Below are positions 2,644 through 17,676 of a DNA stretch of 64,000 nucleotides, one piece after another (position 1 is the first letter of the stretch; each line of letters begins with the position of its first letter). This DNA comes from Coriobacteriia bacterium. GTDB lineage: Bacteria; Actinomycetota; Coriobacteriia; WRKU01. The stretch spans positions 11,205 to 75,204 of the forward strand of contig WRKU01000002.1 of NCBI GenBank assembly GCA_009777935.1, written 5' to 3'. A program made the position numbers and the translations under genes. The notes under the pieces were generated by a model. The model did no database searches, was not told the DNA's origin, and saw nothing but the letters and a program-made list of their open reading frames with translations.

Positions 2644-3746
2644 CGGTCCGTGTCACATATGACTATCAGGCGTTTTCGATGCAGAAGGTTGGCGGCATCT
2701 CGCGCTATGTTGCTGAAGTTACGCATGCGCTTAAGGGGCGTTCGGGTATCGAACCTGGAGTTCCGGTTCGGTACGCCGACAATCGATATCTCGTTGAAGT
2801 CTTAAATATCCGACCGCACACCTTGTTTCATCGATATCGCGGTCGCGGATGTCGTTACGTTATGTCCTTTGGCGATTATTTCAATAAAAAGTTGGCCCTA
2901 CGTGCGCTCGAAACGATTAGCGAACCAGTGTACCATCCCACCTATTACGACCCTTACTTGTTGCCACATCTCAATCAGACACCTTTTGTTATTACAGTGC
3001 ATGATATGATTCATGAGCTTTTCCCAGATGAAGTAGCAGATCCGTGGGTTGCTCTTCATAAGGCGGTTATGATTGAACAAGCAGACCACATAATCGCGGT
3101 GAGCGAATCAACCAAGCGCGATCTCCTACAGTTTTATCCTGAGTCTGCAGGGAAGGTGACCGTCATACATCATGGAGCGAGCTTTATGCGTCGCGAGAAC
3201 AATATCGAGCCTCTTGTATCAGGGCCATATTTACTGTTTGTGGGGAGTAGAGGAGCATACAAAAACTTCAAGATGACCGTTGAAGCATATGTGCAACTAG
3301 GGGGTGAGCACCCGGATCTTTCGCTGGTATGCGCCGGTGGGGGGATATTCACCCAAGACGAACAGTATATGCTTGATGCGCGAGGCATCAGCAGTCGTGT
3401 TTATCAAATCTCTGCGACCGATACGCAGCTCGAAAGTCTTTATGCTCATGCGGCAGCATTCGTTTTTCCTTCTCACTATGAAGGTTTTGGCCTGCCCATA
3501 CTCGAAGCTATGGCGTGTGGCGCTCCCTGTGCATTGAGCAACACGAGTTCACTGCCGGAAGTCGGCGGTGATGCAGCATGTTACTTTGATCCCTGTGACG
3601 CGGATGCGCAGGCGAGAATACTTGCAGATATTTTGAGTGATAATACGCTCGCATCTGATATGCGCCATGCAGGATTTAAGCGGGCAGCAAGTTTTACCTG
3701 GGAAAAGTCAGCACGTCAGCACGAAGAGGTGTACCTCGCATTATGA
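2640..3746 (+). CDS. Glycosyltransferase family 4 (GT1 superfamily, GT-B fold)
   Basis: C-terminal 'EGFGLPILEAMACGAPCALSNTSSLPEVGGDAACYFDP' motif typical of GT4. ATGA start/stop overlap with the upstream gene at 2640. Confidence 0.8.
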   Translation: MTVRVTYDYQAFSMQKVGGISRYVAEVTHALKGRSGIEPGVPVRYADNRYLVEVLNIRPHTLFHRYRGRGCRYVMSFGDYFNKKLALRALETISEPVYHPTYYDPYLLPHLNQTPFVITVHDMIHELFPDEVADPWVALHKAVMIEQADHIIAVSESTKRDLLQFYPESAGKVTVIHHGASFMRRENNIEPLVSGPYLLFVGSRGAYKNFKMTVEAYVQLGGEHPDLSLVCAGGGIFTQDEQYMLDARGISSRVYQISATDTQLESLYAHAAAFVFPSHYEGFGLPILEAMACGAPCALSNTSSLPEVGGDAACYFDPCDADAQARILADILSDNTLASDMRHAGFKRAASFTWEKSARQHEEVYLAL

Positions 3747-4576
3747 GAGAGCGACTCCCACAACAACCGACACTATTTTTGGTAACAGCATGTCTGAACG
3801 CAGAGGCAACTATTAGTGATACGTTTGCCGTTCTCGAAGAACAGGCTGTCGAATGGGCGCACTATTTTGTGATAGACGGTGCTTCGACTGACGGAACCGT
3901 TGAGCTGGCACATCGGTTTGCTGAGGAACAAGGCGGTCGCGTCACCGTTATCTCCGAACCCGATACCGGCATCTATAGCGCCATGAACAAAGGTGTACGA
4001 CTGGCGTTAAGGCGAGCGGCTGATGACGACCTGATAGCGATTATCAACGCTGACGACTACTACGTATCGGGTGCGTTGCACACGGTGCGCGCGGCTGCAG
4101 CGCGTCATCCTGAGGTTGACATATTCTATGGCGACTGCGAACTGCTCGATGAGTGTGGAGTTTCTCGGAGACAGCGGCGCACATCAGAGCCACGCTTACC
4201 CGTGACCCCGACGTGCTTCACGATGCCTCTCGAGCATCCCACCATGTTCATGCGTGCACATGTGTATAACACGTTCGGTCTTTACGACGAATCGTATCGC
4301 ATAGCGGCAGACTACGAGTTTGTATTGCGCCTTATCGTTGCGCAGACATCGACACTTTACCTCGCCGAGCCGATAACGTATTTTCGTGAAGGTGGCATCT
4401 CGACGACGAAGATTAACGAGAGCCTCAGGGAGGCCATACGTGCCCGGATTGCGCATGGTGCGAATCCGGTGTATGAGTGGGCACGGTATGCAAAACAAAA
4501 ATTTAACGAGCAACTGTTTGCTGTTTTACGCGTCGTTCCGGGCGTGGAATGTATCTACACTGAACGATACAGGTAA
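3743..4576 (+). CDS. Glycosyltransferase family 2
   Basis: 'LFLVTACLNAEATISDTF...IDGASTDGTVELAHRF...DTGIYSAMNKG' GT2 signature. ATGA overlap with the upstream gene. Confidence 0.8.
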   Translation: MRERLPQQPTLFLVTACLNAEATISDTFAVLEEQAVEWAHYFVIDGASTDGTVELAHRFAEEQGGRVTVISEPDTGIYSAMNKGVRLALRRAADDDLIAIINADDYYVSGALHTVRAAAARHPEVDIFYGDCELLDECGVSRRQRRTSEPRLPVTPTCFTMPLEHPTMFMRAHVYNTFGLYDESYRIAADYEFVLRLIVAQTSTLYLAEPITYFREGGISTTKINESLREAIRARIAHGANPVYEWARYAKQKFNEQLFAVLRVVPGVECIYTERYR

Positions 4577-4625
4577 CCCATCTTGTGACATGCCGTGATG
4601 GGCACTATGTGCCTTAAAACCGTGT

Positions 4626-4631
4626 TATAAT
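4626..4631 (+). promoter_or_regulatory. Putative -10 box (TATAAT) with conserved downstream leader 'ATATCTGAGACGAAAGG' ahead of paralog A
   Basis: TATAAT sits 30 nt upstream of the ATG at 4661. A GAAAGGGA ribosome-binding site follows. The same leader motif recurs upstream of 13668. Confidence 0.35.
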
Positions 4632-4660: not shown

Positions 4661-5536
4661 ATGACGAAAAAACTCGTCACACGAGTCGCTATGCTTGTCG
4701 GCGCAGGTATTATGGCGTTCGGGCTGGCAGGGATTGCCGTTGCCACGACGCCAGCTGAACTCTCCGAGATGCAGTACGTCGTTGCTGAGAACACGGAAGT
4801 AGGAACCAGTCTCATGACTGTGTATGGCTTTCTGCCAGACGATACCTCACTTCCGGCAACTGCACATTTCTACGCACCTTCTGACTTCTTGCTTGTCAAT
4901 GTTTTTGGGTTAACGCTTGAGGAAGATTCACGGGAAGTTGTGGTGTCGCATACGGCGACCGAGGAGGACAACGGCTTCACGCGCTATGACGTTGTTTTTA
5001 CTGAGAGCACCATGTTTATAGCGAGTTTTGTGCTTGACGCAAAGATATATGACACGACAGTGATGGGCGGTCCAAGTGCTGCTCCCATCGCTGAACTTGA
5101 GGTCCTTCCTCCAAATGACCTTGAGCTTCTTACGATTGGGTTTGTCGCTCCTGAGGGCTATGCAGGCGTGGGTCAAGGGGTGACTCAGCTGGGAACCGAT
5201 TATGATGGCAACGAAATCTACGGAATTGATTACACCAATGTTCCGGGTGATGAGGTCATTGTGGCGGTCGTCGCCTTTGGTCAACAGTTCGAACAAGTGG
5301 AGTTTAATGCAGAGAACGTAGCGTTGGCGACAGTGTGGTACGAAGAGCCGTTCACGTGGATTATGGGCGCGCTCATATTTGCTGCGGCAGGTCTTGCCGT
5401 TGTCCTCTACCTGATACTTACCTGCAAAGGCCCGTTTGCCTCACGTAGTGACGTAGGAACCCACGATGTGCAAGATTCCGATACACCAGCTAACACCGAC
5501 ACAACAACTTCCGATGAAGAAGCTTCAGCGCGTTAA
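4661..5536 (+). CDS. Uncharacterised surface protein, paralog A (N-terminal signal peptide, about 230-aa ectodomain, C-terminal TM anchor and acidic tail)
   Basis: Hydrophobic N-terminus, single C-terminal helix 'WIMGALIFAAAGLAVVLYLIL'. Shares a 'L.IGF.APEG..G.G' block with the proteins at 13668 and 14541. Confidence 0.55.
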   Translation: MTKKLVTRVAMLVGAGIMAFGLAGIAVATTPAELSEMQYVVAENTEVGTSLMTVYGFLPDDTSLPATAHFYAPSDFLLVNVFGLTLEEDSREVVVSHTATEEDNGFTRYDVVFTESTMFIASFVLDAKIYDTTVMGGPSAAPIAELEVLPPNDLELLTIGFVAPEGYAGVGQGVTQLGTDYDGNEIYGIDYTNVPGDEVIVAVVAFGQQFEQVEFNAENVALATVWYEEPFTWIMGALIFAAAGLAVVLYLILTCKGPFASRSDVGTHDVQDSDTPANTDTTTSDEEASAR

Positions 5537-5582
5537 GGATAGTATTCGACGTCGGTTAGCTGAGGATGACGCTCGGCCCCCG

Positions 5583-6527
5583 ATGACCACAGAGGACGCT
5601 AAGCGCCTTACTAAACGCTTGGCACCGTGGGTATTTCTGGCGGTGGTATTTCTGCTCTTGCTGCCCGGCGCCGTTGCGACGGTCTGGGTTCCCGCGTGTA
5701 GCTCGTGCCATGTTACCGTTGCTGAAGCAACGGCCGAGAGAGCACACGTCGATATGGCCTGCACCGACTGTCATAATACCGGAGGACGTCTCGCATACCG
5801 ACAAATCGTTATGTATAGCATGGTAACAAGGCTTGCCAATCCTTCAAATCTCGGTGCGGCAAACGTGTCTGATGAAACATGTCTCACCTGTCATGAAACG
5901 GACGTCACGCGCGGCACTACGCTGTCAAATGGCATCAATATCAGACATTCGGCATGCGCAGCAACCCTCGCATGCACAGTATGCCACTCGACGGCCGGTC
6001 ACTCGACGCCCGGCCTCCAGTATCAATACTCGATGGATCAGTGTCTCTGGTGTCATACCGACCAAATGGTCGATGCCGCCAACGAGGAAAGCTGCTACCT
6101 CTGTCATGATGGACGGTATCGATCGGTCATACCGAATAACACCTCGGCTTTTCGTATCACCCATAATGAGAACTGGCTTCGAACACACGGGCTTGGCGAT
6201 ATGAACTCTTGCCGGAGTTGCCACACAACGGAAACCTTCTGTGGCAGATGCCACGGACCACTAGTACCCCATCCTCCGACCATCCTTATGCGACATTCAG
6301 AGCCGGCGCGTGATCCGAACAATAAGTGCGACAGTTGCCATCCACAGTCGTTCTGTGACGATTGTCATGGCATGGAAATACCACATCCTGAGCGGTTCCT
6401 CCAAGAACACGCTGCCATCACCAACGAGCTTGGCGAGGACGCCTGTTATGGCTGTCATCTCACGAGCGATTGTCTGCGGTGCCATATGGCGCACATTCAT
6501 CCGGGTTGGGGGGTGTTCACGCGCTGA
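5583..6527 (+). CDS. Membrane-anchored multiheme cytochrome c with 12 CXXCH motifs (NapC/NirT-like N-terminal anchor)
   Basis: CSSCH, CTDCH, CLTCH, CTVCH, CLWCH, CYLCH, CRSCH, CGRCH, CDSCH, CDDCH, CYGCH and CLRCH were counted directly. N-terminal helix 'WVFLAVVFLLLLPGAV'. The start is uncertain: the ORF opens at 5466, with alternative ATGs at 5514 and 5583. 5583 is chosen because it lies just after the upstream stop at 5536. Confidence 0.75.
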   Translation: MTTEDAKRLTKRLAPWVFLAVVFLLLLPGAVATVWVPACSSCHVTVAEATAERAHVDMACTDCHNTGGRLAYRQIVMYSMVTRLANPSNLGAANVSDETCLTCHETDVTRGTTLSNGINIRHSACAATLACTVCHSTAGHSTPGLQYQYSMDQCLWCHTDQMVDAANEESCYLCHDGRYRSVIPNNTSAFRITHNENWLRTHGLGDMNSCRSCHTTETFCGRCHGPLVPHPPTILMRHSEPARDPNNKCDSCHPQSFCDDCHGMEIPHPERFLQEHAAITNELGEDACYGCHLTSDCLRCHMAHIHPGWGVFTR

Positions 6528-7735
6528 TGCAAGACTTTATCGATACCCTTTGGCAGATTGTCAACGTTCCCGTGCACGAAGACTCCTTTGCACAGCGGCT
6601 TGACTATCTGGCCGGTGTCATACGAAATCCGCAATCCGATGTTCCAGTTGCCATTCTGCTTTTTGCGATAGCATCACTTATTATTCTGGTAATCTTTTCT
6701 ATTGTTTTGTTAATAGTCTTAAGACTTGCGCACTCAGAGCCGACGTACGCGCTCGTTGACGCCGAGGGTAATCCTATTCGCGAGATATCGGCCGAAGAAG
6801 CTGAGAAGCGTCTCAAAGGGTCACCACTTGAAAAGGTGCAACGAACAACACGTGAGATACTCGATAAGACGGCGGCAAAGATTGCTATCAACATTATCAT
6901 ATGGGTTGGTATCGCACTCATTGTGGCGGCAATTACGGGGACGGCGACACGCTCGAATACGTTTTGTAACTCGTGCCATGAGGAAAACAATCATTCGCAA
7001 ATGCTTGCAGGCACTGCTCATGCAAATGTACTCTGCGTCGACTGCCACGAGACTGGAGGGATGGTGCAGTCTTTCACGGTGAACGTGCCAGGACGACTCG
7101 TTCATACTGCAGCGGGCTTTTTCTGGCAGTCGGGTGTGAACTACGCGTTCTTCCCGCGCGAATCGTGCTTCCGGTGTCATCCGCGTGAGAGTCTTGCTGA
7201 GACGATAATAGTCGACAACATTGCGATGCAACATGAGCCGCCCCTAGAGGCAGGGCTTACCTGTATTCAGTGCCACACTTTTAGTCCCTCACAGGAGTTT
7301 TCGTTTTCAACGCGAGGCATGCAAACGTGCTTGCGCTGTCATGATGGCGAGAACGTTAATCTGGACTGTGAAATATGTCACCGTCCTTCGTTAAGCGTTG
7401 TGCCGCGTACCGAACTCGATCCGGATACAACGGCTCAGGCACTACTCCAAGGTGTCGACTTCCAGCAAGGTTGTTATCGCTGTCACGACCCACGCCCGTG
7501 CGACGCATGCCATGGCTATCGTATACCACACGCCGAGGGCTACACGTTTCAGCCGCATGTCGATGATGCGCGGCGATATGGGTATCGAACGTGCTTAATA
7601 TGCCATTGGAAGGGGTCACCGACGGGTATTCCCACCTGCGATGATCCGGGATGTCATGGCAATATTTGGCAACTGATGGAGGTTCCCAACCCTTCCGGAC
7701 AAGTGCCCAGCCCCTCTTGGCGACGGCTCAGATAG
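6527..7735 (+). CDS. Membrane-bound multiheme cytochrome c with 9 CXXCH motifs plus one CX4CH, and two TM helices
   Basis: CNSCH, CVDCH, CFRCH, CIQCH, CLRCH, CEICH, CYRCH, CDACH, CLICH and CDDPGCH. TGATG overlap with the upstream cytochrome. Helices 'VAILLFAIASLIILVIFSIVLLIVL' and 'INIIIWVGIALIVAAITG'. Confidence 0.8.
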   Translation: MQDFIDTLWQIVNVPVHEDSFAQRLDYLAGVIRNPQSDVPVAILLFAIASLIILVIFSIVLLIVLRLAHSEPTYALVDAEGNPIREISAEEAEKRLKGSPLEKVQRTTREILDKTAAKIAINIIIWVGIALIVAAITGTATRSNTFCNSCHEENNHSQMLAGTAHANVLCVDCHETGGMVQSFTVNVPGRLVHTAAGFFWQSGVNYAFFPRESCFRCHPRESLAETIIVDNIAMQHEPPLEAGLTCIQCHTFSPSQEFSFSTRGMQTCLRCHDGENVNLDCEICHRPSLSVVPRTELDPDTTAQALLQGVDFQQGCYRCHDPRPCDACHGYRIPHAEGYTFQPHVDDARRYGYRTCLICHWKGSPTGIPTCDDPGCHGNIWQLMEVPNPSGQVPSPSWRRLR

Positions 7736-7736
7736 C

Positions 7737-9482
7737 GTGCTCGATTCTATGCGTAAATACGCTCTGGCGCTCTTCATGCTCGCGTGTTTTCTCGCGCCGG
7801 GCGCATTCCTCATCTTCACTGTTCCTCAACTTTACTACGCACAGATATGGTTCGTAATAACACCGCTTATCGGTTATGCGATATTCGCCGTATGTGCGCG
7901 TGGAGATACGGTCTTTTCAGAACGAGCACTTTTTATTACAACACTCATCGTTGGCGCAGCGCTCGTGCCGCTACTTGTGAACCCGCATATCTGGCAACAA
8001 ATTACGTTTGACATCTATGGCGAGATGCCGCTTATTTTGTGGCTGATGTATCCGCTTGTCTTTTTTATGGCATCGACGGTAAAGTTTGATTCGTCGGTTC
8101 GTCCGGGAATCTATGCGCTTGCGTACGTCGGCTTCTTGTTGATTGTGGTGGCCGGTGTTCAGCGTCTCATGATGGGCGATTGGTCGACGGTCTTTGGAAG
8201 TCGTGCATATTCGACGGTGGCGTTTGCCCCCATTCCCCTTTTGCTTCTTTACACGGCGAACCTCGACAAAGAGCACAAACCGGTGCATCTTGCGGCCGCT
8301 ATACTGGCTGTCGTCGGTGTTGCTTACTCTGGCGGCGCACTGGGTCTGTACACCGTCGCAGCTCTGCTGCTTCTTGCCGTGAGTTTTGCACCCGAGCTAC
8401 TGCAGATGCCGACGAAAGCTACCACATGGGCAAAACGAGGTGGGCGAGTCTTGCTGACGCTGTTTGTTACTGCTTCAGCCGTGGTTACCTTTGCGCCTGA
8501 CCTCGCACATACGATGCCCGATATTGCCGTGTTTTCCTCGAATGCGGTGGCGACGCGCATTCATCTCTGGGAGGCAGCGCAGAGGATGTTTCTCGCCGAA
8601 CCGTTATTCGGTTTTGGACCGGCTGGCTATCGATTCTCAGCGATACAGTTTTACGACCCTCAAATCTTTGAGTACACCATGACACTTGGCACCGACCCTA
8701 TTGCCTATAGCTCGCCGTCGCCGCACTCGCTTGCGTGGGAGGTGCTCACGAGGCTTGGCCTGTGGGGTGCTGTGCTTTTGACGGCTGCAGCGGTCGTGTG
8801 GGCTATTGATTTACGTGAAGCAATCCAAGAGAAAACGCGTAATAACCCGCGCATGTTGTTCGCTCTGTGTACGCTGGCCGCGCTTATGGCGCTCTTTGCG
8901 ACACCGTTTCATTTTGCGAGCGGCCTGCTCGTCGCGCTCTGTGCGGGATTGGCGATTGCGCCAACGGCGAGGGTGACAAAAGCGCGGGCTCCCCATTCTG
9001 CGCCGCAATCGTTGCGCTTCACGAATTTCTTGCCTGTCGCGCTTCTTGCGACAAACCTTATTCTGGTGCTTATCGGGGGATATGCGCTTTACGCACACAT
9101 CAATCTCCACACTCCTGACCCAACACCACAACACTATTTGGTACGGCTTGAGAATCTTCGTGCACGGGTGCCGGGCTATCCGTTTGCCGAGCGCGATTAT
9201 TATGAGATGCTCATCGTGACCGCTGGCGCACCACAGCAACAAGATGCTATCGCCGAAGAGATACTTACGCAAGCACCTTCGTATGTTTCGGGTTTTGGGC
9301 CAAATCTTGCATGGTATGCAGGGCTTATGCTCGATAACCTTGAGCGATGGGAAACAGACTCCGTGCGCTCTACGGATTCCGTCGTTATGGTACGCGCACT
9401 TCTCGATTGTGCAGCCGAAATAATGCCGTCGACCCCGGCGTATCTTGAGGCGCGCGAACGTTTGGCGGTTATGGTAGACTAA
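7737..9482 (+). CDS. O-antigen ligase / Wzy_C-domain membrane protein (candidate O-oligosaccharyltransferase or polymerase-ligase) with a C-terminal soluble extension
   Basis: At least 10 TM helices. 'HLWEAAQRMFLAEPLFGFGPAGY' resembles the conserved periplasmic loop of WaaL, PglL and Wzy_C proteins. Possible GTG start at 7737 or ATG at 7749. Confidence 0.55.
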   Translation: MLDSMRKYALALFMLACFLAPGAFLIFTVPQLYYAQIWFVITPLIGYAIFAVCARGDTVFSERALFITTLIVGAALVPLLVNPHIWQQITFDIYGEMPLILWLMYPLVFFMASTVKFDSSVRPGIYALAYVGFLLIVVAGVQRLMMGDWSTVFGSRAYSTVAFAPIPLLLLYTANLDKEHKPVHLAAAILAVVGVAYSGGALGLYTVAALLLLAVSFAPELLQMPTKATTWAKRGGRVLLTLFVTASAVVTFAPDLAHTMPDIAVFSSNAVATRIHLWEAAQRMFLAEPLFGFGPAGYRFSAIQFYDPQIFEYTMTLGTDPIAYSSPSPHSLAWEVLTRLGLWGAVLLTAAAVVWAIDLREAIQEKTRNNPRMLFALCTLAALMALFATPFHFASGLLVALCAGLAIAPTARVTKARAPHSAPQSLRFTNFLPVALLATNLILVLIGGYALYAHINLHTPDPTPQHYLVRLENLRARVPGYPFAERDYYEMLIVTAGAPQQQDAIAEEILTQAPSYVSGFGPNLAWYAGLMLDNLERWETDSVRSTDSVVMVRALLDCAAEIMPSTPAYLEARERLAVMVD

Positions 9483-9521
9483 GGGGTGTTTAGGACAGGT
9501 CTGAAGGTGAAAGGCGGCGCA

Positions 9522-10298
9522 ATGAGTGACGCAGATAAGCCGGTAGAAAAAGAAGTTGTAGTCGTGCGCAAGAAGCAGAAGATGTTTGATGATCCGGTGA
9601 ACCGGGTGCTTGGCGTTATTATCGCAGCACTTATCATCTGGTCGTTGGGGACGATATTAATGCTCATCTTGACCGGTGTCATTAACCTTTCCGGCGCACC
9701 ACAGAACGCCGATGATGCCGCCGTTCTCAAGTATGGGAGCGCACTCGATGCCGAAGCTGATTCGTGGCAGTGGCAGTTCTATGTGGTGACGCTTATTGAA
9801 TCGGGCAGATTGGCCGAGGCCGAAGCAGTCATCAATAGCGAAGACTTTCAGAATATCGATGTCTATCAGCATCAAGAGATTCTCTACTGTACGGCACTGC
9901 TCGAGTTCCGCCGAGGCAACTACGAAGAGGCCATCGCTCTTTATCGGCAGGTTATCGAGAAGACAAGAGAGTCGTACGAGCACATGCTCGAGACCGGTGG
10001 CGAGCACATGAACTGGGCTCTTGCTGAAGGCATATCTCCGAACTACTCCTTTGCGCTTCGCGATTTGACCGGTGCCTATATGGCGCTAGAAGAGTGGGAG
10101 TCTGCCTTGGAGACAGTGAGCCATTATCTTGAGATAAATCCTCAAGAGGCCGGTATGCTCATTGACCGCGCTCATATCAAGGAGCAACTAGGCGACTACG
10201 CCGGCGCTATAGCCGATCTTGAAATGGCGCAGGTATTCTTGCCAGAGGATGAAGAGGTTATCGAAAGTATCCAGCGTGTTGAAGGGAAACTGCAATGA
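9522..10298 (+). CDS. Tetratricopeptide-repeat protein with N-terminal TM anchor
   Basis: Single helix 'VLGVIIAALIIWSLGTILMLIL', followed by helical repeats with TPR-like spacing (e.g. 'EAIALYRQVIEK', 'GAIADLEMAQVFLPEDEE'). A ribosome-binding site (GAAAGG) lies upstream of the ATG at 9522. Confidence 0.6.
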   Translation: MSDADKPVEKEVVVVRKKQKMFDDPVNRVLGVIIAALIIWSLGTILMLILTGVINLSGAPQNADDAAVLKYGSALDAEADSWQWQFYVVTLIESGRLAEAEAVINSEDFQNIDVYQHQEILYCTALLEFRRGNYEEAIALYRQVIEKTRESYEHMLETGGEHMNWALAEGISPNYSFALRDLTGAYMALEEWESALETVSHYLEINPQEAGMLIDRAHIKEQLGDYAGAIADLEMAQVFLPEDEEVIESIQRVEGKLQ

Positions 10299-11599
10299 GC
10301 GAGGAACTAAAAGAGACACAACCGCAGAGTGTACCCCCAGCGGATTCGGATGCACAGTCACGGGTTGTTGAGATAGACGAGGCGCATGGTTCGGGCAAAA
10401 ATTCGGGTCGGGTCGCCCTTATTGTTGCTTTGATAACCTTGCTGTTCCTCATGGCGCTAGCAGCAGCCCTCCTTTTTTTCCTGACCGGTGGTCTGGGGGG
10501 TGGTGGTAGAACGGTCGCCGGTGTCACGTGGATACGGTCTATCTATGGCACCGGCCCCGAGCAGCACCAGCAGCACTCTCCCGGCGACGCACATCCGGCC
10601 CCCAGTGGCTCGCGCATGTTTGTGACCGATCAGTTCGGTATGCGTATCATCGAGTACGATCACAACGGTATGTATCACGGGTCGTTCGGTGGTCCGGACA
10701 CACTGCCGTATCCTTCGAACCTTGCCATCGCTGCCGACGGAACTAAATATATTGCGATGCAGACCCACGACAGAATCGTCATCTACGATTCGAATAACAA
10801 TCAAATTGGCGCCATCGAACTTCCCGAGTCACCGTTCTCTGTTGCCGTTAATCAAGACATGTTGCTGGTAGGTATGCGCGGAGCCTTTGGTGCTTTTGAG
10901 CTGGACGGTACTGAGATTGGATACGTCGGATCGTTTGGTAACGGCGAGTTCCAGTTCGATAATATCAGCGGCGTGGCTCTTGATAACAATAACAACGCAT
11001 ACATTGTGGATACGTTCAATAACCGTATTAGCAAGTATGATCCAGCCGGTGAACGGATATGGATTCATCGCACAGGTGTTCCGCGCAACGCAGGAATGAA
11101 CATTGCGCTTGAGGAGGATCTGGAAGTATCGCGCGAACTTTTTCCCTCTAATATGCAAATGCCCATGGGCGCTACCATCGATGCAGCCAACCGCCTCGTC
11201 ATCGTCGATATGATGGACTTCTCCATTGCGGCCTTCGATATGGAAACCGGTGAGTTCATTGATAAGTGGGGTACGTTCGGCGAGGCCGATGGCGCTCTCC
11301 ATTATCCAAACCAGATTGAGTACCATCGTGGCGAGGATGTGTTCTACATCGTTGAAACAGCGTTGGGTCGTGTACAGATTGTTTCATTGCCGGGTTCTGG
11401 CGGTGGCCTACTTACACAGTTAAATCGCAACTTGGCCGGTCCACTGGGTGCCTGCCTGTTACCGGTTCTCCTGATTATCGTCATCGCCACTGCCTATTAT
11501 GTAGCGCGTAAGATAATGAGAAAACGTGCCGAAGAAGCCGAGATTAAAGCTCAAGAGGCTCCAGAAGATACTGAGATGGGAACCAAAACGGGGGAATAA
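10295..11599 (+). CDS. NHL-repeat (six-bladed beta-propeller) protein anchored by both N- and C-terminal TM helices
   Basis: Repeated 'Y..D..N.RI..YD' blades, e.g. 'AYIVDTFNNRISKYDPAG', 'RLVIVDMMDFSIAAFD', 'VFYIVETALGRVQIV'. TM helices near residues 40-65 and 385-410. ATGA overlap at the start. Confidence 0.65.
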   Translation: MSEELKETQPQSVPPADSDAQSRVVEIDEAHGSGKNSGRVALIVALITLLFLMALAAALLFFLTGGLGGGGRTVAGVTWIRSIYGTGPEQHQQHSPGDAHPAPSGSRMFVTDQFGMRIIEYDHNGMYHGSFGGPDTLPYPSNLAIAADGTKYIAMQTHDRIVIYDSNNNQIGAIELPESPFSVAVNQDMLLVGMRGAFGAFELDGTEIGYVGSFGNGEFQFDNISGVALDNNNNAYIVDTFNNRISKYDPAGERIWIHRTGVPRNAGMNIALEEDLEVSRELFPSNMQMPMGATIDAANRLVIVDMMDFSIAAFDMETGEFIDKWGTFGEADGALHYPNQIEYHRGEDVFYIVETALGRVQIVSLPGSGGGLLTQLNRNLAGPLGACLLPVLLIIVIATAYYVARKIMRKRAEEAEIKAQEAPEDTEMGTKTGE

Positions 11600-11632
11600 C
11601 GCCATATGTTAATCTTTCTTAATAAAATTATG

Positions 11633-11663
11633 CCAATCCGCGGTCGATTTGGTCGCGGATTGG
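11633..11663. promoter_or_regulatory. Perfect 10-bp inverted repeat CCAATCCGCG-N11-CGCGGATTGG in the AT-rich leader upstream of the secreted cytochrome
   Basis: Seen directly. It lies 34 nt downstream of the stop of the upstream gene and about 170 nt upstream of the ATG at 11835. It could be a U-less terminator hairpin or a dimeric transcription-factor operator. Confidence 0.4.
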
Positions 11664-11834
11664 TGCGTCAAATATCACCTGAAATTACTTAAAAATCTTT
11701 CTGAAAAATATTTATTTTTTCCCGAAAATTTGATATACTATATATGGCTGACAAGTGTCAGATATTCTATGCTCGGATGGGGGGTGATAACAATGAAAGA
11801 GATGAAAAATGTTCCTTCTATTAAAGGAGATAGT

Positions 11835-13451
11835 ATGAAAAAAGTATTACTTACGCTTGCTTTGGCAGCAATGCTCGTCTTTGCATTTGCATCCGTTGCC
11901 GGAGCTAAGTATGCAGGTTATGCAATCGACGGTAACCGCGACCGCAACGAGATTAATTCCGAGACCGGAACCGTTAACTCACCACAGCCCGGCTTCCTCT
12001 CATGGGGCGGTGCTATCCGTATGCAGGATGCGAGTGGCTTTACCGCAGCTGCAACGGCACCCGGTGCACCCGGTGTTGGTAACGTGCACGGTGGCTATGC
12101 TATCGCGTCGTCTAAGTGTTTCGTCTGCCACTCTGCTCACCGCGCAGGTGTAGCAACGACACGTGCCTCACTGACCATGGGTGGCGCAGCGTGCGGTATC
12201 TGTCACACCGTATGGGGTGGCGGCGGTGCCAACAAGAAAGTTGAGTACAACCGTGACGAGATGCGTCCGCACTCGAGCGCAGACACGACCTGTCACCAGT
12301 GTCACGGTGGCGGTATCCACGGTGGTGGGGGATCTGAGTTCGCGGGTATGAACATGTTCCTCATTGGTGGCAGGGCTGACAGTCTCATCAGAGCAGAGAT
12401 TGGCGCGGACGCTGCCGATAACTCGAAGCCTAATCAGATTCCAAGTGGTCTGACAGCCGCTCGTACATGGTTTTTCGATAACGCTCCAGCATCGTCTGAT
12501 GCGTGGACCATTCCTACAGGTCTGAATCGTCAGACATGGAGTGTTGCAAAGGGTACCGTTACCGGTATGACCTGTAACCGGTCCGGATGTCACACCAACT
12601 CAGTCTTTGCTATCAATGAGTGGGGTGTTGGTGCGACGCGTAACGTTTCGAGCTCTAACCTTGGTGCAGCAATGGGCGGCACAGATACCAATACCGATCC
12701 GATTGCACACACCGGTCACATCAACCCTGGGCGCTATCGCAACACAGGTGGCGACGATTGTGCGCCGTGTCACGCCGGGAATGTATCCGCTGGCTTCCGT
12801 ATGCGCACGGTAGCGGGCTATGAAGATGCAGAACCTGTTGGTGTCGACGGTGACCGCTCGACTGCTTATGGCTGTGACCAGTGTCATGATATGGTCGGTG
12901 TTCAGACCGGTACGACCGCCTTCCCGCACGGTAACCGCGTAGCGGTATACGAGTGGGATGATAATGGTGCTGCAGTGACGACGACCTCGACGGCCGGTAA
13001 TCTCTGGATGTATGCAGGTAACATTGCTCAGATTTCTACCGTTAACTCGACCTGGTCCACCTGGCGTCAGGCCGACGGTATCACCGCACCAGCGGGCTCT
13101 CGAGTTCCCTCTCCGGTCGATCCTAGTTTCCGCGTCATTAACGGTGCGGTTGGTAGCAACAACGACGGTACTGCCAAGGACGGTGCGTGTCTGAAGTGCC
13201 ACATCACGACCGACGATGCGTCGTTCTACCATCTGGTGGGAAGCTATCCGGCAACGGTCGGTCCTGATGGATTCCGTCAGGCACTTACTCCGGCTGCTGT
13301 GGGTACCCGTCACCAGAATCGCGCTATCGGTACTTACTTTAACGCGACCACAACGACAGGCACCGCGTGGCAGAACAAGACCGTCTTTGACGGTACAAAC
13401 CTTGCCTCTGTCCGCGACAACGGTTCAGATGTTATCTGGATCTTCCGCTAG
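11835..13451 (+). CDS. Secreted Gly/Thr-rich multiheme cytochrome c with 6 CXXCH motifs plus one CX4CH
   Basis: Signal peptide 'MKKVLLTLALAAMLVFAFASVAGA'. A ribosome-binding site (AAAGGAGA) lies 7 nt upstream. Motifs: CFVCH, CGICH, CHQCH, CAPCH, CDQCH, CLKCH, CNRSGCH. No TM helix after the signal peptide. Thr-rich segments such as 'TTTSTAGN' and 'TTTTGTAW'. Confidence 0.8.
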   Translation: MKKVLLTLALAAMLVFAFASVAGAKYAGYAIDGNRDRNEINSETGTVNSPQPGFLSWGGAIRMQDASGFTAAATAPGAPGVGNVHGGYAIASSKCFVCHSAHRAGVATTRASLTMGGAACGICHTVWGGGGANKKVEYNRDEMRPHSSADTTCHQCHGGGIHGGGGSEFAGMNMFLIGGRADSLIRAEIGADAADNSKPNQIPSGLTAARTWFFDNAPASSDAWTIPTGLNRQTWSVAKGTVTGMTCNRSGCHTNSVFAINEWGVGATRNVSSSNLGAAMGGTDTNTDPIAHTGHINPGRYRNTGGDDCAPCHAGNVSAGFRMRTVAGYEDAEPVGVDGDRSTAYGCDQCHDMVGVQTGTTAFPHGNRVAVYEWDDNGAAVTTTSTAGNLWMYAGNIAQISTVNSTWSTWRQADGITAPAGSRVPSPVDPSFRVINGAVGSNNDGTAKDGACLKCHITTDDASFYHLVGSYPATVGPDGFRQALTPAAVGTRHQNRAIGTYFNATTTTGTAWQNKTVFDGTNLASVRDNGSDVIWIFR

Positions 13452-13495
13452 GATGTGTTTAAGTGGTTTAGTGTTACAATGTGTTTAGCGTAACA

Positions 13496-13530
13496 AGAAG
13501 GGGTCCTCCGGGACCCCTTCTTTATTGCCC
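13496..13530 (+). terminator. Rho-independent terminator
   Basis: AAGAAGGGGTCC-TCCG-GGACCCCTTCTT perfect 12-bp stem followed by TTATT, 45 nt after the cytochrome stop. Confidence 0.7.
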
Positions 13531-13667
13531 TGCCGCGCTTCATGTACCATCCGGCGCATCTCTTTCTGTTCCGGTCTCACCGCCATGCTACCTCTTTTCC
13601 GGTAAAGGTATATAATAGATGCGTAACGCGTGTCCGGTAAGTATATCTGAGGGCGAAAGGTACGAAC

Positions 13668-14480
13668 ATGATGAGACGACGTGGCATTCTTTCCGCATTC
13701 TTAGGCACAATCGTGCTTTTGGGTGTGTTAGGTATTGGCATCTCTGTGGCTGGTGCCGCGGTCTTTAATCGAATAAGCGTAATCGCTCGTCCCTACGATG
13801 CTTTTACGACCGAATACACGGTAATTGCGAGGCCGTCTGTGCACGACGCTCCGGTTGGCACCGCACAGCTTGTCTTGCCGCGCGACATCACGGTGGTTTC
13901 TGCACGCCATATCGCGGATGCCAGTAGCGTGGATGATGAGGGCGAAGCAGAATACACCGTCGAGCCACATTCGAATGGTATTGATGACGTCTACACCTTT
14001 GTTTTGGCCGATGAAGAAGGCACAAGCGGGCTTTTCGATTGGCAAGGAGTTCAGATAGTGCTCCACGCCGATGAACCGCTGTATTCTGAGACCGATGACG
14101 GTCAAATTGTGTCTTCGTTTCGATTCGTTGCACCAAACCCTCTATCAGGTCTCGAAATTGGCTTCGAGGCTCCAGCGAGGATGACAGGCAGCGGTGCTGG
14201 TGTCGTTTTGCTTGAGGAGGACGCATACGATAGGGCAGTATATGGTATTACTCGCGCAGAGAACGTGCGTGCGGATGAAGAGATTGTTGCACAGGTCGTC
14301 TTCAATCTTATTGAAGATCCTGGTCCGGCCGAAGCCGTGGCGCTTAGTGTCACTGAGTCAGTCGAAGAACATAACCGGGGCCTCATCATAGGTGCGCTCA
14401 TTGGTGCAATCATCCTTGTCGTCGTAGTCGTCGTGCTCGTTGCACGCAAGGTCAGTAAGGATAGGAAGCAGGCACAGTAG
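13668..14480 (+). CDS. Uncharacterised surface protein, paralog B (signal peptide and C-terminal TM anchor)
   Basis: Signal peptide ending 'VAGAAVF'. C-terminal helix 'LIIGALIGAIILVVVVVVLVA' followed by 'RKVSKDRKQAQ'. 'ADEPLYSETDDGQIVSSFRFV' and 'LEIGFEAPARMTGSG' align with the paralog at 14541. Confidence 0.6.
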   Translation: MMRRRGILSAFLGTIVLLGVLGIGISVAGAAVFNRISVIARPYDAFTTEYTVIARPSVHDAPVGTAQLVLPRDITVVSARHIADASSVDDEGEAEYTVEPHSNGIDDVYTFVLADEEGTSGLFDWQGVQIVLHADEPLYSETDDGQIVSSFRFVAPNPLSGLEIGFEAPARMTGSGAGVVLLEEDAYDRAVYGITRAENVRADEEIVAQVVFNLIEDPGPAEAVALSVTESVEEHNRGLIIGALIGAIILVVVVVVLVARKVSKDRKQAQ

Positions 14481-14540
14481 GCTGCAAACTAAGCCGCAGG
14501 CAGGCTGTTTGTAAAACCTGAACAGGAAGGTAGAGGCACG

Positions 14541-15311
14541 ATGAAGCGACTTGCCATCTTTATGACACTCGTAGGGGCTGTTCTACTCTTTGGCATGACG
14601 GGTTTGGGCGCAACCGAGGCTGGTGCTGCCTTCCAGCGCGTGGTCATCACCGGTTCCCCTCATGGCGATACAGCGGCCGAATACGAGGTTATTGCCCGAG
14701 TCTCGGCCCATCATCTTCCGAAGGATGCACCGAGACTTATACTTCCCGTTGATTTTGACGTAGTCGAGGTGGAGTATCTCTGGAGTGCTATGAGCCAGGG
14801 TGTGGAGCCTGAAAAGTATGCTGTTGGGCCTCATCCCGATGGGTGGGGTAACGTCTATTCGTTTAGCGTGACAGACTGGACAGGAATCCGGCTTGTGTTC
14901 CGTGTCGACGAACCACTGTATCGAGAAAACGACGACGGTGACCTTGTCTCGAGCTATTCTTTTAAAGTTGATTACGCTTTGTCCGAGCTCGTCATTGGCT
15001 TCGAGGCACCTGAGGGCATGGTTGGCACGGGCAAAGACGTTATCTTTTTGGGAGAAAGCGCGGATGATGTGCCTCTTTACGGCATCAACGTTGCGCCGGC
15101 GCGCGCAGGACAGGAAATCGTCGCCGAAGTTACCTTCACTGAACCTGAACCCGAAGTCGAACCGGGGTTCTTTGCGACTCTTAGTGCCAAGATAACCGAT
15201 CTTGCGCGCGAACATACGGTTGGATTAATCGTCGCCGTGTTGGTGGGCGGGATAGTACTTGTCGCTGCGGTTGCACTGTTCGTTGTCTGGCGAAGCCATC
15301 ACGAGAGGTGA
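14541..15311 (+). CDS. Uncharacterised surface protein, paralog C (signal peptide and C-terminal TM anchor)
   Basis: 'VDEPLYRENDDGDLVSSYSFKV' and 'LVIGFEAPEGMVGTGKDV' blocks. C-terminal helix 'LIVAVLVGGIVLVAAVALFVV' followed by 'WRSHHER'. Confidence 0.6.
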   Translation: MKRLAIFMTLVGAVLLFGMTGLGATEAGAAFQRVVITGSPHGDTAAEYEVIARVSAHHLPKDAPRLILPVDFDVVEVEYLWSAMSQGVEPEKYAVGPHPDGWGNVYSFSVTDWTGIRLVFRVDEPLYRENDDGDLVSSYSFKVDYALSELVIGFEAPEGMVGTGKDVIFLGESADDVPLYGINVAPARAGQEIVAEVTFTEPEPEVEPGFFATLSAKITDLAREHTVGLIVAVLVGGIVLVAAVALFVVWRSHHER

Positions 15312-15521: not shown

Positions 15522-16172
15522 GTGGAATTCATGTTACTAATATTTTCGAGCATCATCGCAATTGGGACACTGGCTGTGCTTATTTGGCAAGTTTCATTGC
15601 TTACCCGTCAAGTGGTTTTGGCGAGGAAGAGCATGGAAAATCAGTACGAACAAACAAGGCGCGTGCAGACAGTAGCGGTAAGTGCTAACTGGACCTCGGC
15701 CATGAGCCCTGCGTTGTATTTTGCGTTTCGGATAGTTTCACAACTTGATGACAAGCAGTGTGACAACTTGTATCGGCTTGTTAGTTTTGATGTGCAAAAT
15801 CTTGATCCGGGTCTCAAACCTTATTTATGTGAGTTATGTATGGCAGAAAAACATCAGAACGAATGCTCAGAAGAGTGTTCGGCTAGTGAAACGTATGCTC
15901 ACATATCAGGGAAAGCGCTTTCCGAACTTAGGACAGTTGCAATACGATTCCTAAATGAAGCCGAGACGGTTATGACTGCACGCGCGCTGGGCATAGTTGA
16001 TAAAGACACTATTGATCGTCAATTTATGTTCTTAGTCGATCCACGCAAGGGACAGCCGGCATTAGAGAAATTTAGAAAAGTTTCAGGTGGCTATCCTAAT
16101 TTAGATGCATTTATCGAAGAGCTTAAAGAGGCAAATAATGCTTCTTATAAGTCTCCTTTAACAGTCGAGTAA
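15522..16172 (+). CDS. Hypothetical protein with N-terminal TM helix, in a low-GC islet
   Basis: 216-aa ORF with an N-terminal helix 'MLLIFSSIIAIGTLAVLIW'. The surrounding roughly 0.9 kb (15.4-16.3 kb) is visibly AT-richer than the flanks. No family recognised. Confidence 0.4.
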   Translation: MEFMLLIFSSIIAIGTLAVLIWQVSLLTRQVVLARKSMENQYEQTRRVQTVAVSANWTSAMSPALYFAFRIVSQLDDKQCDNLYRLVSFDVQNLDPGLKPYLCELCMAEKHQNECSEECSASETYAHISGKALSELRTVAIRFLNEAETVMTARALGIVDKDTIDRQFMFLVDPRKGQPALEKFRKVSGGYPNLDAFIEELKEANNASYKSPLTVE

Positions 16173-16328: not shown

Positions 16329-17537
16329 TCACTGTTGGTACAGTTCGAGATATTGTGGGATAACGACGCTCGTGTCGTAGTGGGCGAGCGCGTGGCTGTG
16401 TTGTGTTGCGGCTAGGGTGGTGCGCTCTTGTGGCGTTGCGGTTGCCCAATGTTCGATAAGGTCGGCGAGTGCCTCGGGCGTGGGCTCACAGAGGGCGTTA
16501 GCATTGCGCACCTCGTCCGTGATGCCGCGGGTACGGGTGCCGACGATTGGCACACTGGCGGCCACAAACTCCATCAGCGAGCGTGGTAGCCCTTCGCGTT
16601 TGCTGACCAGTAGCCCCAAGTCACAGGCGACACAGAGCGCGGGGATGTCGGCAAACGGTACCGCCCCCGTGAAGTGCACGCTGTCGGCGAGGTTATGTTG
16701 CCGCACATATGCGCGAAGCCTACGCTCAAGCGGACCGCTGCCTATGAAGACGAAGCGAACAGGAGCGGTGCGTTGCGCGTGCTTCCGATGTTCGCGCTCT
16801 GAGCGCTCCTTCAGCAGACGCACTGCATCGAGCACGAGGCGGTGGCGTTTGTTCGCAGAGAGCTCGGCAATCACCCCGACGACGAACGCATCGGCATCGA
16901 TTCCCCGCTCAGCGCGGATAGCCGCACCGTCGGCAGCCGCAGCTGCTGTGCCAAACGCGGCGAAGTCGAAGCCCATACCATCGATACGCCGCAGCTCGCA
17001 GACGCGCTCGCTTCCCACGGTCAGCGCACACAGATTCGCACCGGCGACTTCATCCTCATCGTTCATGACGACGAGCGTATCGGTCCCGTGTATGACAAGC
17101 CGTTCAGCGGCGCGATATGCGAACGCACTAATGCCAGCACCTTTGTAAAAATGCAGGCCATGGGCGGTATATATAATGCGTGGTTTGTTCGCCCAACACG
17201 GCCTATACACGCCACCTTGCCCGTCGCGTTCGCGCATCTCGGCCAACGCTAAGCGTGTCACAAACGCGGCAATCGGCGTGTGCACGTGTACAACATCGTA
17301 TTCCTCATGCTCAACGAGCTCGCGAATCTCACGCGCGAAACGTTGCACCCTCAAGAGCGACAGCGGCGAACGTGTCCACCCAATCTCATGCACTGCATCG
17401 AAGTCGCCGTCCAAACTCGTGCCGTCATCGTGCGTCAAAGCATCGACAGTCCACCCCGTATCGCGGAGCGCACGGGTAAGCGGCAACAAAAATGCCCGCA
17501 GAGTAACACCGATTGTCGTTACCATTAAAGCCTTCAT
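16329..17537 (-). CDS. Glycosyltransferase family 4 (GT-B)
   Basis: 402 aa. 'MKALMVTTIGVTLRAFLLP' N-terminus typical of WbuB/PimA-like GT4. 'GTRTRGITDEV' near the C-terminal domain. A TATAAT sits 6 nt upstream of the ATG on the minus strand. Confidence 0.75.
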   Translation of the reverse strand: MKALMVTTIGVTLRAFLLPLTRALRDTGWTVDALTHDDGTSLDGDFDAVHEIGWTRSPLSLLRVQRFAREIRELVEHEEYDVVHVHTPIAAFVTRLALAEMRERDGQGGVYRPCWANKPRIIYTAHGLHFYKGAGISAFAYRAAERLVIHGTDTLVVMNDEDEVAGANLCALTVGSERVCELRRIDGMGFDFAAFGTAAAAADGAAIRAERGIDADAFVVGVIAELSANKRHRLVLDAVRLLKERSEREHRKHAQRTAPVRFVFIGSGPLERRLRAYVRQHNLADSVHFTGAVPFADIPALCVACDLGLLVSKREGLPRSLMEFVAASVPIVGTRTRGITDEVRNANALCEPTPEALADLIEHWATATPQERTTLAATQHSHALAHYDTSVVIPQYLELYQQ

Positions 17538-17644
17538 AGTGCCATTATAATAGACCTATGGAAACCGCGCCGTACTCAACTGCGCAATTGTTCAATTATA
17601 TGTCTGACGTACGCAAATCCCCACGAAACCTCCGCCACTCGCGC

Positions 17645-17650
17645 TATAAT
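17645..17650 (+). promoter_or_regulatory. Putative -10 (TATAAT) for the gmd-fcl operon, with a GGAAAGGAG ribosome-binding site
   Basis: 'cgcTATAATagagagaccggaaaggagcacgtgccATG'. The -10 lies 27 nt upstream of the start at 17677. Confidence 0.4.
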
Positions 17651-17676
17651 AGAGAGACCGGAAAGGAGCACGTGCC

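Follow-up and report, generated by a model that had tools for sequence, protein, structure and literature searches.

A conserved multiheme cytochrome module with a recurrent Wzy_C-type gene is a candidate extracellular electron-transfer conduit of uncultured Coriobacteriia

We analyzed a 64,000-nt stretch of DNA from a Coriobacteriia bacterium (GCA_009777935.1, contig WRKU01000002.1, positions 11,205-75,204 of the forward strand), the whole of which is referred to here as the window. Nine plus-strand genes at positions 4661-15311 encode three multiheme cytochromes (cyt1, cyt2 and cyt3) together with six accessory proteins, and we judge it moderately probable that this module is a lineage-specific extracellular electron-transfer (EET) conduit of monoderm Actinomycetota. 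Such a function had been proposed in a first-pass annotation of the DNA, and it is supported by the match of cyt2 to NrfH, a gene core that is conserved in other loci, the absence of a reductase, and the fusion of cyt3 relatives to surface domains. The open reading frames (ORFs) and the gene calls of NCBI, which agree on all nine genes (tags FWG78_00770 to _00810), bear out the earlier description of nine same-strand genes inside a glycan locus.

The three cytochromes carry 29 heme motifs in total, and the CXXCK motif is absent. In cyt1 there are 12 CXXCH motifs, every one of them invariant in 10 orthologues (alignment A6). Cyt2 (402 aa) has nine CXXCH motifs and one CX4CH motif, giving ten that are invariant in its homologues (alignment A7), and cyt3 has six CXXCH motifs and one CX4CH motif, also invariant across homologues (alignment A1). 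These counts confirm the first-pass estimates of about 12, 9-10 and 6-7, and because the motifs are invariant in all three cytochromes, they are not chance occurrences. Conserved histidines for the sixth ligand are present in all three families. In particular, ten non-motif histidines of cyt1 are invariant across the 10 orthologues and one more (H55) is nearly so, and cyt3 has seven conserved non-motif histidines, equal to its number of heme motifs (alignment A1). Because these seven match the seven motifs, no open catalytic heme is evident in cyt3. All three thus combine conserved CXXCH motifs with export, as expected of c-type multiheme cytochromes, and heme attachment is predicted. Hydrophobicity and composition also agree with the first-pass view that two of the cytochromes are membrane-anchored and the third is secreted and Gly/Thr-rich: the signal peptide is the sole hydrophobic segment of cyt3, and its composition is 13.4% Gly and 16.7% Ser plus Thr.

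Cyt2, whose gene follows cyt1 with a gap of -1 nt, resembles the NapC/NirT/NrfH family in its N-terminal region. PF03264 is matched at 30.4 bits (cutoff 24.1), and in a comparison with the PDB, a profile built from ten orthologues aligned over positions 114-181 with residues 15-83 of NrfH (2j7a_C, E 5.5e-10), a span that includes the transmembrane (TM) helix and hemes 1-2. The family's arrangement of a TM helix directly before the first heme motifs is therefore found in cyt2. However, NrfH and NapC have four hemes in ~160-200 aa and work with a dedicated reductase, whereas cyt2 has ten heme motifs and an extra N-terminal TM helix, and it scores far under the equivalog cutoffs for NrfH and NapC (26.6 vs 134.2 bits for TIGR03153 and 16.8 vs 310.6 bits for TIGR02161). 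The MtrA/DmsE decaheme equivalog TIGR03508, with a cutoff of 192.2 bits, gives 24.0 bits for cyt1 and 32.6 bits for cyt2. The second PDB match of the cyt2 profile, a local similarity at E 1.7e-9, is to 6r2q chain A, which is labelled 'cystathionine beta-synthase' and which we take to be MtrA of the MtrCAB complex; OcwA (6i5b) is reached at E 0.051 only. Because the equivalog scores are so far from their cutoffs, we place cyt2 outside the NrfH, NapC and DmsE families and describe it as what appears to be a membrane module of NrfH type to which a longer heme wire is joined, that is, a candidate menaquinol dehydrogenase plus wire. The best profile matches of cyt1 are HmcA-type c3 arrays (HmcA 2e84_A at E 3.7e-9), with Pfam Cytochrome_C7 and c3_2 above cutoff; across cyt1 and cyt2 together, Cytochrome_C7, c3_2 and Paired_CXXCH exceed their Pfam cutoffs.

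NrfH/NapC-like proteins normally feed NrfA, Nap or Nir-type enzymes, so the N-terminus of cyt2 would also suit a model in which the cytochromes supply electrons to a respiratory reductase of a conventional kind (nitrite, sulfite, tetrathionate or dimethyl sulfoxide type) that acts on a soluble substrate on the outer side of the membrane and has its catalytic subunit elsewhere in the genome. We scanned the listed ORFs of at least 150 aa between 22 and 64 kb, plus selected gene-like ORFs below 22 kb, and found no molybdopterin, flavin/flavoprotein or catalytic reductase family among them, as the first-pass annotation had noted. An acceptor-side enzyme that is missing from the 64-kb window could lie elsewhere in the genome, but no catalytic reductase is found at any of at least 11 further module loci either, with flanks of up to 10 kb. 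The lack of CXXCK, the match between conserved non-motif histidines and hemes in cyt3, and the low NrfH, NapC and DmsE scores on the NCBIfam equivalogs all argue against a reductase arm, and 29 hemes, a secreted carrier and fusions to surface domains exceed the needs of a quinol-to-enzyme link. We consider this model very improbable.

The conservation of the module also supports an EET conduit. A search for syntenic clusters in other genomes had been suggested in the first-pass annotation, and we ran it by mapping the window proteins, with BLAST and hidden Markov models (HMMs), onto the loci of cyt3 relatives and onto later loci. A core of cyt1, cyt2, a TPR protein, an NHL protein and a cyt3-family protein was found in at least 11 further places. 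The core is complete at L009, L011, L015/L021, L017 (two tandem copies), L022, L023, L024 and L025, and partial on cut contigs at L004, L016, L026 and L027. Its content is constant and its gene order permuted, with cyt3 either first or last, and the TPR-NHL and cyt1-cyt2 genes are always paired. All named sources are uncultured Coriobacteriia or Actinomycetes metagenome-assembled genomes (MAGs), several of them from soil- or humus-feeding termites. Some of the genome loci belong to MAGs from termite guts with the labels Lab288 and Emb289, which stand for the soil feeder Labiotermes labralis and the humus feeder Embiratermes neotenicus (PMC7024585). The GC content of L022 and L023 is 65-68%, compared to 53% in the window, which indicates that the module reaches beyond the window's termite lineage.

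Some of these loci have unusual arrangements. The tandem modules of L017 (4657-20547) are both complete, in the order surf-cyt1-cyt2-TPR-NHL-cyt3 and then TPR-NHL-cyt1-cyt2-cyt3; PglD-like, GT2 (glycosyltransferase family 2) and Bac_transf genes separate them, and a RelB/ParE toxin-antitoxin pair is located just upstream. At L023 (2001-15254; genome GC 65%), the module and three Wzy_C genes (597, 603 and 625 aa) lie between leuC/leuD-like genes, which encode aconitase-type large and small subunits, and an isopropylmalate dehydrogenase gene, and this looks like a mobile block inserted in a biosynthetic operon. Just upstream of the L025 module (2326-6023), an Exosortase_EpsH-family gene stands by the gene for an 888-aa protein with cytochrome and LRR_5 matches; an exosortase-type sorting system is unexpected near Gram-positive-type cytochromes.

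Support also comes from cyt3 and its relatives. The cyt3 gene starts at ATG 11835 behind an AAAGGAG ribosome-binding site, and its 538-aa product is identical to NCBI protein P0001 (tag FWG78_00800). A first search returned 91 relatives, the named ones all from Coriobacteriia or Actinomycetes MAGs, and an exhaustive profile search of 1.84 billion cluster representatives returned 507 at E<=1e-3 and 98 at E<=1e-30. Judged by these searches, the cyt3 family is small and uncharacterised. Against the PDB, its profile gave merely E>0.3 matches to NrfA/NapB heme motifs; OcwA (6i5b) was not matched, and no similarity to the filament subunits OmcS, OmcE and OmcZ was detected among PDB sequences or as a fold match. 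A match to the CFA/I fimbrial subunit CfaB (E 3.4e-6) was rejected: the individual domains give i-Evalues of ~3, their sum over a triple-fusion chain makes up the total score, and the heme Cys motifs that the alignment crosses have no counterpart.

In two relatives, P0203 (903 aa) and P0220 (1273 aa), the cyt3 domain is fused with leucine-rich repeat and surface-repeat domains. A surface location of the family fits these fusions. The cyt3 domain stands behind BspA-like leucine-rich repeats and '...LYAKW'-type repeats, and P0220 has many extra heme motifs. Both ends of the mature protein are conserved, and no known sorting motif fits them: the N-terminus after the signal peptide reads KYAGY or TFRGF, and the C-terminus has R or K as its last residue in 69 of 78 members, following an aromatic/hydrophobic run (RLFLYR and IYLWK types; VIWIFR in the window, 13420-13451). 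Short six-heme forms of 350-354 aa, which still match the cyt3 profile, occur in L022 and L023, and in many MAGs several paralogues of cyt3 stand alone; Lab288P1bin96, for one, has six of them on five contigs. One lone paralogue, at L001/L019 (10001-11686) with no module near, has a radical SAM/SPASM gene ~2 kb upstream and a Tad/Flp pilus cluster (RcpC, CpaE-like, T2SSE, two T2SSF and Flp) that starts ~4 kb downstream.

The accessory proteins include three with recognizable domains. The NHL protein passes the Pfam cutoff for PF01436 (22.0 bits vs 20), and its orthologues carry PF01436 and PF08450; the ScyF equivalog NF035926 is matched at E 4.5e-17 and 62.3 bits, short of its cutoff of 350. 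Its two-TM architecture is kept in eight aligned orthologues (alignment A2), and among 5.8 billion proteins there are ~60 full-length orthologues, followed by a sharp drop in score to generic NHL proteins. The C-terminal TM helix has an invariant Cys and Pro (C387 and P390; consensus ACCIPL) with an Arg/Lys-rich tail after it in 8/8 orthologues. A conserved LPGSGG stretch ahead of this helix was rejected as an LPXTG-type sortase signal because the motif varies between orthologues and ~17 residues separate it from the helix. The TPR gene is always directly upstream of NHL across the related loci, and its product matches several TPR families above their Pfam cutoffs. Pfam and hydrophobicity thus uphold the earlier account of an NHL protein with two TM helices and a TM-anchored TPR protein. 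The further statement that the accessory proteins belong to no recognised family does not hold for these two, which have Pfam assignments and precedents in Dethiobacter, Desulfovibrio ferrophilus and Geobacter.

No Pfam or NCBIfam family was found for the surf proteins (surfA, surfB and surfC), for which that statement can be kept. Their identities of 21-26%, a common IGFxAPEG motif and HMM scores of 340-373 bits substantiate the description of three paralogous surface proteins with a C-terminal helix. A search of 5.8 billion proteins for the family yielded four, and local HMMs found more members in L002, L003, L010, L012, L017 and L025, which means that the family has very few members or that its divergence defeats the word index. 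The surf proteins are a small family of C-terminally anchored beta-sandwich proteins that is new here. The outward orientation of all products of the cluster is a prediction that rests solely on hydropathy and the positive-inside rule.

The remaining accessory gene, which begins 1 nt past the cyt2 stop codon, was assigned to the Wzy_C family in the first-pass annotation. Eight module-associated proteins of related loci score 34-70 bits for PF04932, and the window copy is a weaker match below the Pfam cutoff (E 2.9e-5, 24.3 vs 31.7 bits). It is 31% identical to the Wzy_C protein that adjoins cyt2 in L022 (42 bits). An alignment of five sequences has R274, G292/G294/P295 (GFGP in four of the five) and P329-H330 invariant. 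In the window protein these all fall within the large loop that separates the TM segment near residue 235 from the one near 336, and the catalytic residues of WaaL and PglL occupy that large-loop position (PMC3643930). Compared with the O-oligosaccharyltransferases described there, we find one invariant loop Arg, one His and a gene in a cytochrome operon; a second Arg was not identified. A scan of nine Wzy_C proteins, with reporting limits of E<=0.1 or E<=0.05, gave no PglL_A (PF15864), and a Wzy_C profile matched designed TM proteins only in the PDB. At least two module-associated Wzy_C proteins have C-terminal TPR repeats.

Wzy_C and other glycan genes recur with the module across loci. Wzy_C follows cyt2 after a 2-nt gap in L022 and overlaps it in L026. 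Counted over loci, a ~600-aa Wzy_C gene directly adjoins the 10-heme gene in three besides the window, and in a fourth it is found ~100 nt downstream. In L025 a single copy is directly upstream of TPR-NHL; L024 has three, one of 446 aa upstream of TPR-NHL and two of ~600 aa after cyt2; and in L023 three copies bracket the module in the leucine-biosynthesis operon, with no other glycan gene. Genes for lipid-linked glycans are found beside most of the modules, and Bac_transf, PglD-like, DegT, Polysacc_synt_2, Wzx or glycosyltransferase genes flank the module in the window, L017, L022 and L024-L027. More specifically, the flanks hold Bac_transf, PglD-like, DegT and Polysacc_synt_2 in L017, L022 and L025, Wzx, GT4 (family 4), methyltransferase, deacetylase and radical-SAM genes in L022, L024 and L026, and Wzx plus GT4 with sugar-modification enzymes in L027, and the enzyme types found downstream of the module in the window recur beside it in L022, L025 and L017. 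Overall, 6 of ~12 module instances have Wzy_C, and 8 have Wzy_C or other glycan genes, several contigs being too short to judge.

The glycan link is thus probably not accidental, and because Wzy_C and glycan genes recur with the module across loci, we treat Wzy_C as a putative part of it. The embedding in a glycan locus that the first-pass annotation described is confirmed, and it appears to be more than mere neighborhood, as both Wzy_C and the genes for lipid-linked glycans recur. The most likely role of Wzy_C would be O-glycosylation of the Ser/Thr-rich cyt3 and/or the surf proteins, and cyt3 is probably glycosylated; a wall-glycan polymerase or ligase is the main alternative.

A rival view is that the glycan genes and Wzy_C are unrelated to the cytochromes, which were merely inserted into a locus whose own repeat-unit polymerase or wall ligase is Wzy_C. 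PF04932 includes Wzy/WaaL-type enzymes, PF15864 was undetected, the window is one long glycan locus, the L021 module is without glycan genes, and no Wzy_C gene was found within 10 kb of the L017 module. On the other hand, Wzy_C adjoins or overlaps cyt2 (from an overlap to a 2-nt gap) in three independent and divergent loci, the window, L022 and L026, and the three copies around the L023 module are in a leucine operon with no other glycan gene. The C-terminal TPR repeats of at least two module-associated Wzy_C proteins are a protein-binding fold. Moreover, three other polytopic membrane proteins of the window could supply the locus polymerase. These are encoded at 27997-30033, 45366-46736 and 51008-52498, have ~12, 10 and 8 hydrophobic segments and no Pfam family, and may be Wzy-type polymerases of the locus or handle its glycans in another way. 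We regard an unrelated glycan locus as possible but doubtful.

Transcription signals were assessed from direct reading, composition and folding only, and a promoter/terminator consensus scan gave nothing above background. The genes from surfA through NHL are tightly spaced, with gaps of -4 to 46 nt. The spacer before cyt3 contains a hairpin at 11632-11664 (14-bp stem, -21.6 kcal/mol), a TATATAAT-like element was noted upstream of surfB, and a terminator at 16285-16311 closes the plus-strand run. A separate AT-rich region upstream of cyt3 and a separate terminator behind it make one transcript of all nine genes improbable, which does not weaken their functional link. Composition and folding make three transcription units likely, with cyt3 on its own, and separate expression is typical of an abundant structural or terminal component. 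The leaders of surfA and surfB (4640-4660 and 13647-13667) both have ATATCTGAG-N2-CGAAAGG directly before the start codon, which suggests a conserved translation-initiation or regulatory element.

Taken together, these observations suggest a conduit in which cyt2, held in the membrane by an NrfH/NapC-type helix, would take electrons from the menaquinol pool and pass them along its ten hemes. The N-terminally anchored dodecaheme cyt1 would relay them through the wall zone, and cyt3, which would be separately transcribed and is probably abundant, would be the outermost carrier and hand them on to acceptors that are insoluble or polymeric, for instance Fe(III) minerals or humic matter in the guts of soil- and humus-feeding termites. 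The two-TM NHL protein and the TM-anchored TPR protein may be extracytoplasmic scaffolds or assembly factors. Wzy_C would take lipid-linked glycan made by the flanking genes and most likely O-glycosylate cyt3 and/or the surf proteins, or alternatively build wall glycan that holds the cytochromes in place. One member of OPB41, a lineage within the Coriobacteriia, is an obligate Fe(III) reducer for which 17 multihemes but no NHL protein are mentioned (PMC9686372). In termite guts, EET via soluble mediators has been shown for a Clostridia isolate and the gut microbiota (PMC13599477).

The electron path might equally run in reverse. Multiheme chains are reversible and the sequence does not fix their direction, so the same architecture could serve electron uptake (from Fe(II), reduced humics or partner cells) or act as a sink or detoxification system (for O2, reactive oxygen species or quinones) at the microoxic gut periphery. 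Dethiobacter clusters of this type contain MtoA-like cytochromes, some of them expressed in Fe(II) oxidation (PMC10376724), and the NHL-associated cytochromes of D. ferrophilus serve electron uptake (PMC5815863). However, the characterised role of NrfH-type modules is quinol oxidation, a diet of soil or humus is a source of oxidised iron and humics, and positive evidence for uptake is lacking; we therefore think such a job unlikely. A further idea, to which we also give little weight, extends the EET conduit rather than replacing it. In this speculation, cyt3 and its short six-heme relatives would form a glycosylated extracellular cytochrome polymer or wall-spanning array, assembled by the NHL and TPR proteins and O-glycosylated by Wzy_C, and the surf proteins would be its accessory subunits, similar to Ost1, or its anchors. 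Its evolution would have been separate from that of the OmcS, OmcE and OmcZ filaments but under the same gene-cluster logic. If true, it would give a Gram-positive lineage its first cytochrome 'nanowire' system.

Several points weigh against an EET conduit with a built-in glycan transferase. The proposed link to the quinone pool derives from homology over ~70 residues of cyt2, and the window has no genes for cytochrome c maturation, menaquinone or the donor side. Cyt3 has no solved relative, its AlphaFold2 model is of low confidence (pLDDT 61) and without a fold match, and its assigned location and role come from the signal peptide, the domain fusions and synteny. The window Wzy_C falls under the Pfam cutoff and PF15864 is undetected, so a Wzy polymerase or wall-glycan ligase role is possible, and the L021 module is surrounded by housekeeping genes, without a glycan gene closer than 10 kb. 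The module was absent among the named cultured Coriobacteriia in the NHL search, whose named orthologues included no cultured organism. An important caveat to the analysis as a whole is that the evidence is from sequence and that the organisms are all uncultured MAGs.

The features of the module and its surroundings are collected in Table 1. The rest of the window is a continuous envelope-glycan locus, which extends over ~60 kb around the cytochrome module. Its families include a Wzx flippase, GT2, GT4, Gmd, PglF-like, DegT, ManC, RmlABCD and an MBOAT/AlgX-type pair, with further glycosyltransferases and sugar-nucleotide enzymes up to the 64-kb end, and it also contains wall hydrolases with GBS_Bsp repeats. 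Two large wall-associated proteins, encoded at 37120-40875 (plus strand) and 58264-60426 (minus strand), each have 5-6 GBS_Bsp-like repeats, one with amidase_3 and glucosaminidase domains and the other with a transglutaminase-like core, and are probable wall-glycan-binding hydrolases of this envelope locus. An Rfam scan of the whole window found no RNA family, and a search of the cluster for direct and inverted repeats found just paralogue-derived and short chance matches. No homologue of orf216 was found in loci L001-L016.

Table 1. Position and description of the module genes, candidate transcription signals and adjoining glycan genes in the window
Feature	Position	Strand	Description	Remark
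Upstream glycan genes	332..4576	+	Wzx-type flippase (Polysacc_synt), GT2, GT4, GT2	
Candidate promoter	4623..4631	+	TGTTATAAT, extended -10-like element upstream of surfA; candidate promoter of surfA-to-NHL unit	direct reading
surfA	4661..5536	+	signal peptide, ~170-aa all-beta ectodomain, C-terminal TM anchor, acidic/Thr-rich tail	
cyt1	5583..6527	+	dodecaheme c-type cytochrome, one N-terminal TM or signal anchor	ORF 5466-6527, start 5583 inferred
cyt2	6527..7735	+	two TM helices, NrfH/NapC-like first di-heme region, more hemes after	ORF 6470-7735, likely start ATG 6527
Wzy_C	7737..9482	+	putative Wzy_C-family (WaaL/PglL/Wzy-type) polytopic membrane protein, ~12 TM, ~135-aa C-terminal soluble domain	
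TPR	9486..10298	+	basic N-terminus, one TM (residues 44-62), TPR domain predicted outside	
NHL	10295..11599	+	NHL beta-propeller with N- and C-terminal TM helices	4-nt overlap with TPR
Spacer	11600..11834	+	235 bp, AT-rich (34% GC), candidate end of upstream unit and cyt3 promoter region	
cyt3	11835..13451	+	secreted heptaheme cytochrome, Gly/Ser/Thr-rich, conserved N- and C-termini	ORF 11649-13451
Terminator-like hairpin	13497..13520	+	GC-rich hairpin then TTTATT, intrinsic-terminator-like, after cyt3	fold of 13452-13520, -25 kcal/mol for region
surfB	13668..14480	+	paralogue of surfA, signal peptide and C-terminal TM	HMM 343 bits
surfC	14541..15311	+	paralogue of surfA/B, signal peptide and C-terminal TM	identical to P0192, FWG78_00810
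orf216	15522..16172	+	one N-terminal TM, last plus-strand gene before terminator	membership doubtful
Downstream glycan genes	16329..22866		GT4 (minus strand), GDP-mannose 4,6-dehydratase, epimerase/reductase, PglF-like Polysacc_synt_2 dehydratase, DegT aminotransferase	

To our knowledge, the molecular details of electron transfer across the thick monoderm wall have been worked out in very few organisms and in no member of the Actinomycetota. The module provides a defined, conserved gene set for an abundant but uncultured gut lineage, in a soil- and humus-feeding termite habitat that makes iron and humic reduction plausible electron sinks. Clusters of multihemes with NHL and TPR proteins are already known from Dethiobacter, D. 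ferrophilus and Geobacter, and the module is an actinobacterial variant of these. What it adds is an uncharacterised secreted heptaheme family, which has no solved relative and is a reasonable structure target, the small surf family, and a recurrent Wzy_C-type candidate glycan transferase that is built into the module.

The closest described monoderm case, compared by cluster description, is the Gram-positive iron reducer Dethiobacter alkaliphilus, whose EET clusters 1-Fe-T, 2-Fe-T and 3-Fe-T hold NHL and TPR proteins that its authors propose to aid secretion, orientation and assembly, and whose cluster cytochromes are overexpressed on ferrihydrite or thiosulfate (PMC10376724). Like the module, these clusters combine a CymA/NapC-like quinol-oxidising multiheme, MtrA-like and secreted multihemes, NHL and TPR. 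Unlike it, they belong to a member of the Bacillota and contain flavoproteins and ABC transporters; no Wzy_C or glycan association is reported for them, and the cyt3 and surf families are not described there. The first-pass annotation had compared the module with the conduits of Thermincola potens and Carboxydothermus ferrireducens, whose chain likewise runs from a quinol-oxidising multiheme in the membrane through multihemes that span the wall to a terminal cytochrome at the surface (OcwA). The anchored-to-surface logic is indeed the same, but NHL is not mentioned and a glycan-transferase component is not described in those papers (PMC6703420; PMC7829351). In the outer-membrane clusters of D. 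ferrophilus IS5, multihemes are co-expressed with NHL propellers proposed as complex stabilisers (PMC5815863). The clustering of multiheme genes with NHL propellers is shared with the module; the organism differs in being diderm, in its use of electron uptake, and in that no TPR or Wzy_C component is described.

For the glycan transferase, the nearest comparisons are PglL/PilO O-oligosaccharyltransferases and WaaL ligases, and the PglL enzymes known to us all come from Gram-negative bacteria. The window protein is similarly polytopic, with a Wzy_C-like region and a conserved loop Arg and His. Genes for PglL-type enzymes usually adjoin the gene of their target (PMC3643930), and the module has a comparable context, with a candidate secreted Ser/Thr-rich target beside the gene and bacillosamine-type sugar genes near in related loci. 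It differs in that a C-terminal TPR-like domain is not a described PglL feature and PglL_A is undetected in the module Wzy_C proteins.

A similar combination of cytochromes and glycan genes is found in the OmcE clusters of Geobacter and Desulfuromonas. The minimal OmcE cluster comprises two multihemes, two propellers, OmcE and a barrel, and in many genomes it is trailed by 15-70 glycosylation genes (GT2, GT4, sugar modification, exporters and TPR proteins); extra densities on G. sulfurreducens OmcE are likely glycans (bioRxiv 10.1101/2025.10.22.684050). Two multihemes, a beta-propeller and a secreted small multiheme, often with glycosylation genes near, are likewise found together in the window and in at least 11 further places. 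The OmcE system is diderm, with a large beta-barrel and lipoprotein propellers, whereas the module lacks the barrel, as expected for a monoderm, and has its propeller on two TM helices. OmcE is a tetraheme, cyt3 has seven hemes (six in the short forms), and the two share no detectable sequence similarity. Wzy_C in a cytochrome operon, together with the glycan theme of Geobacter OmcE, suggests the hypothesis that glycosylation or glycan anchoring is a general need of extracellular cytochromes.

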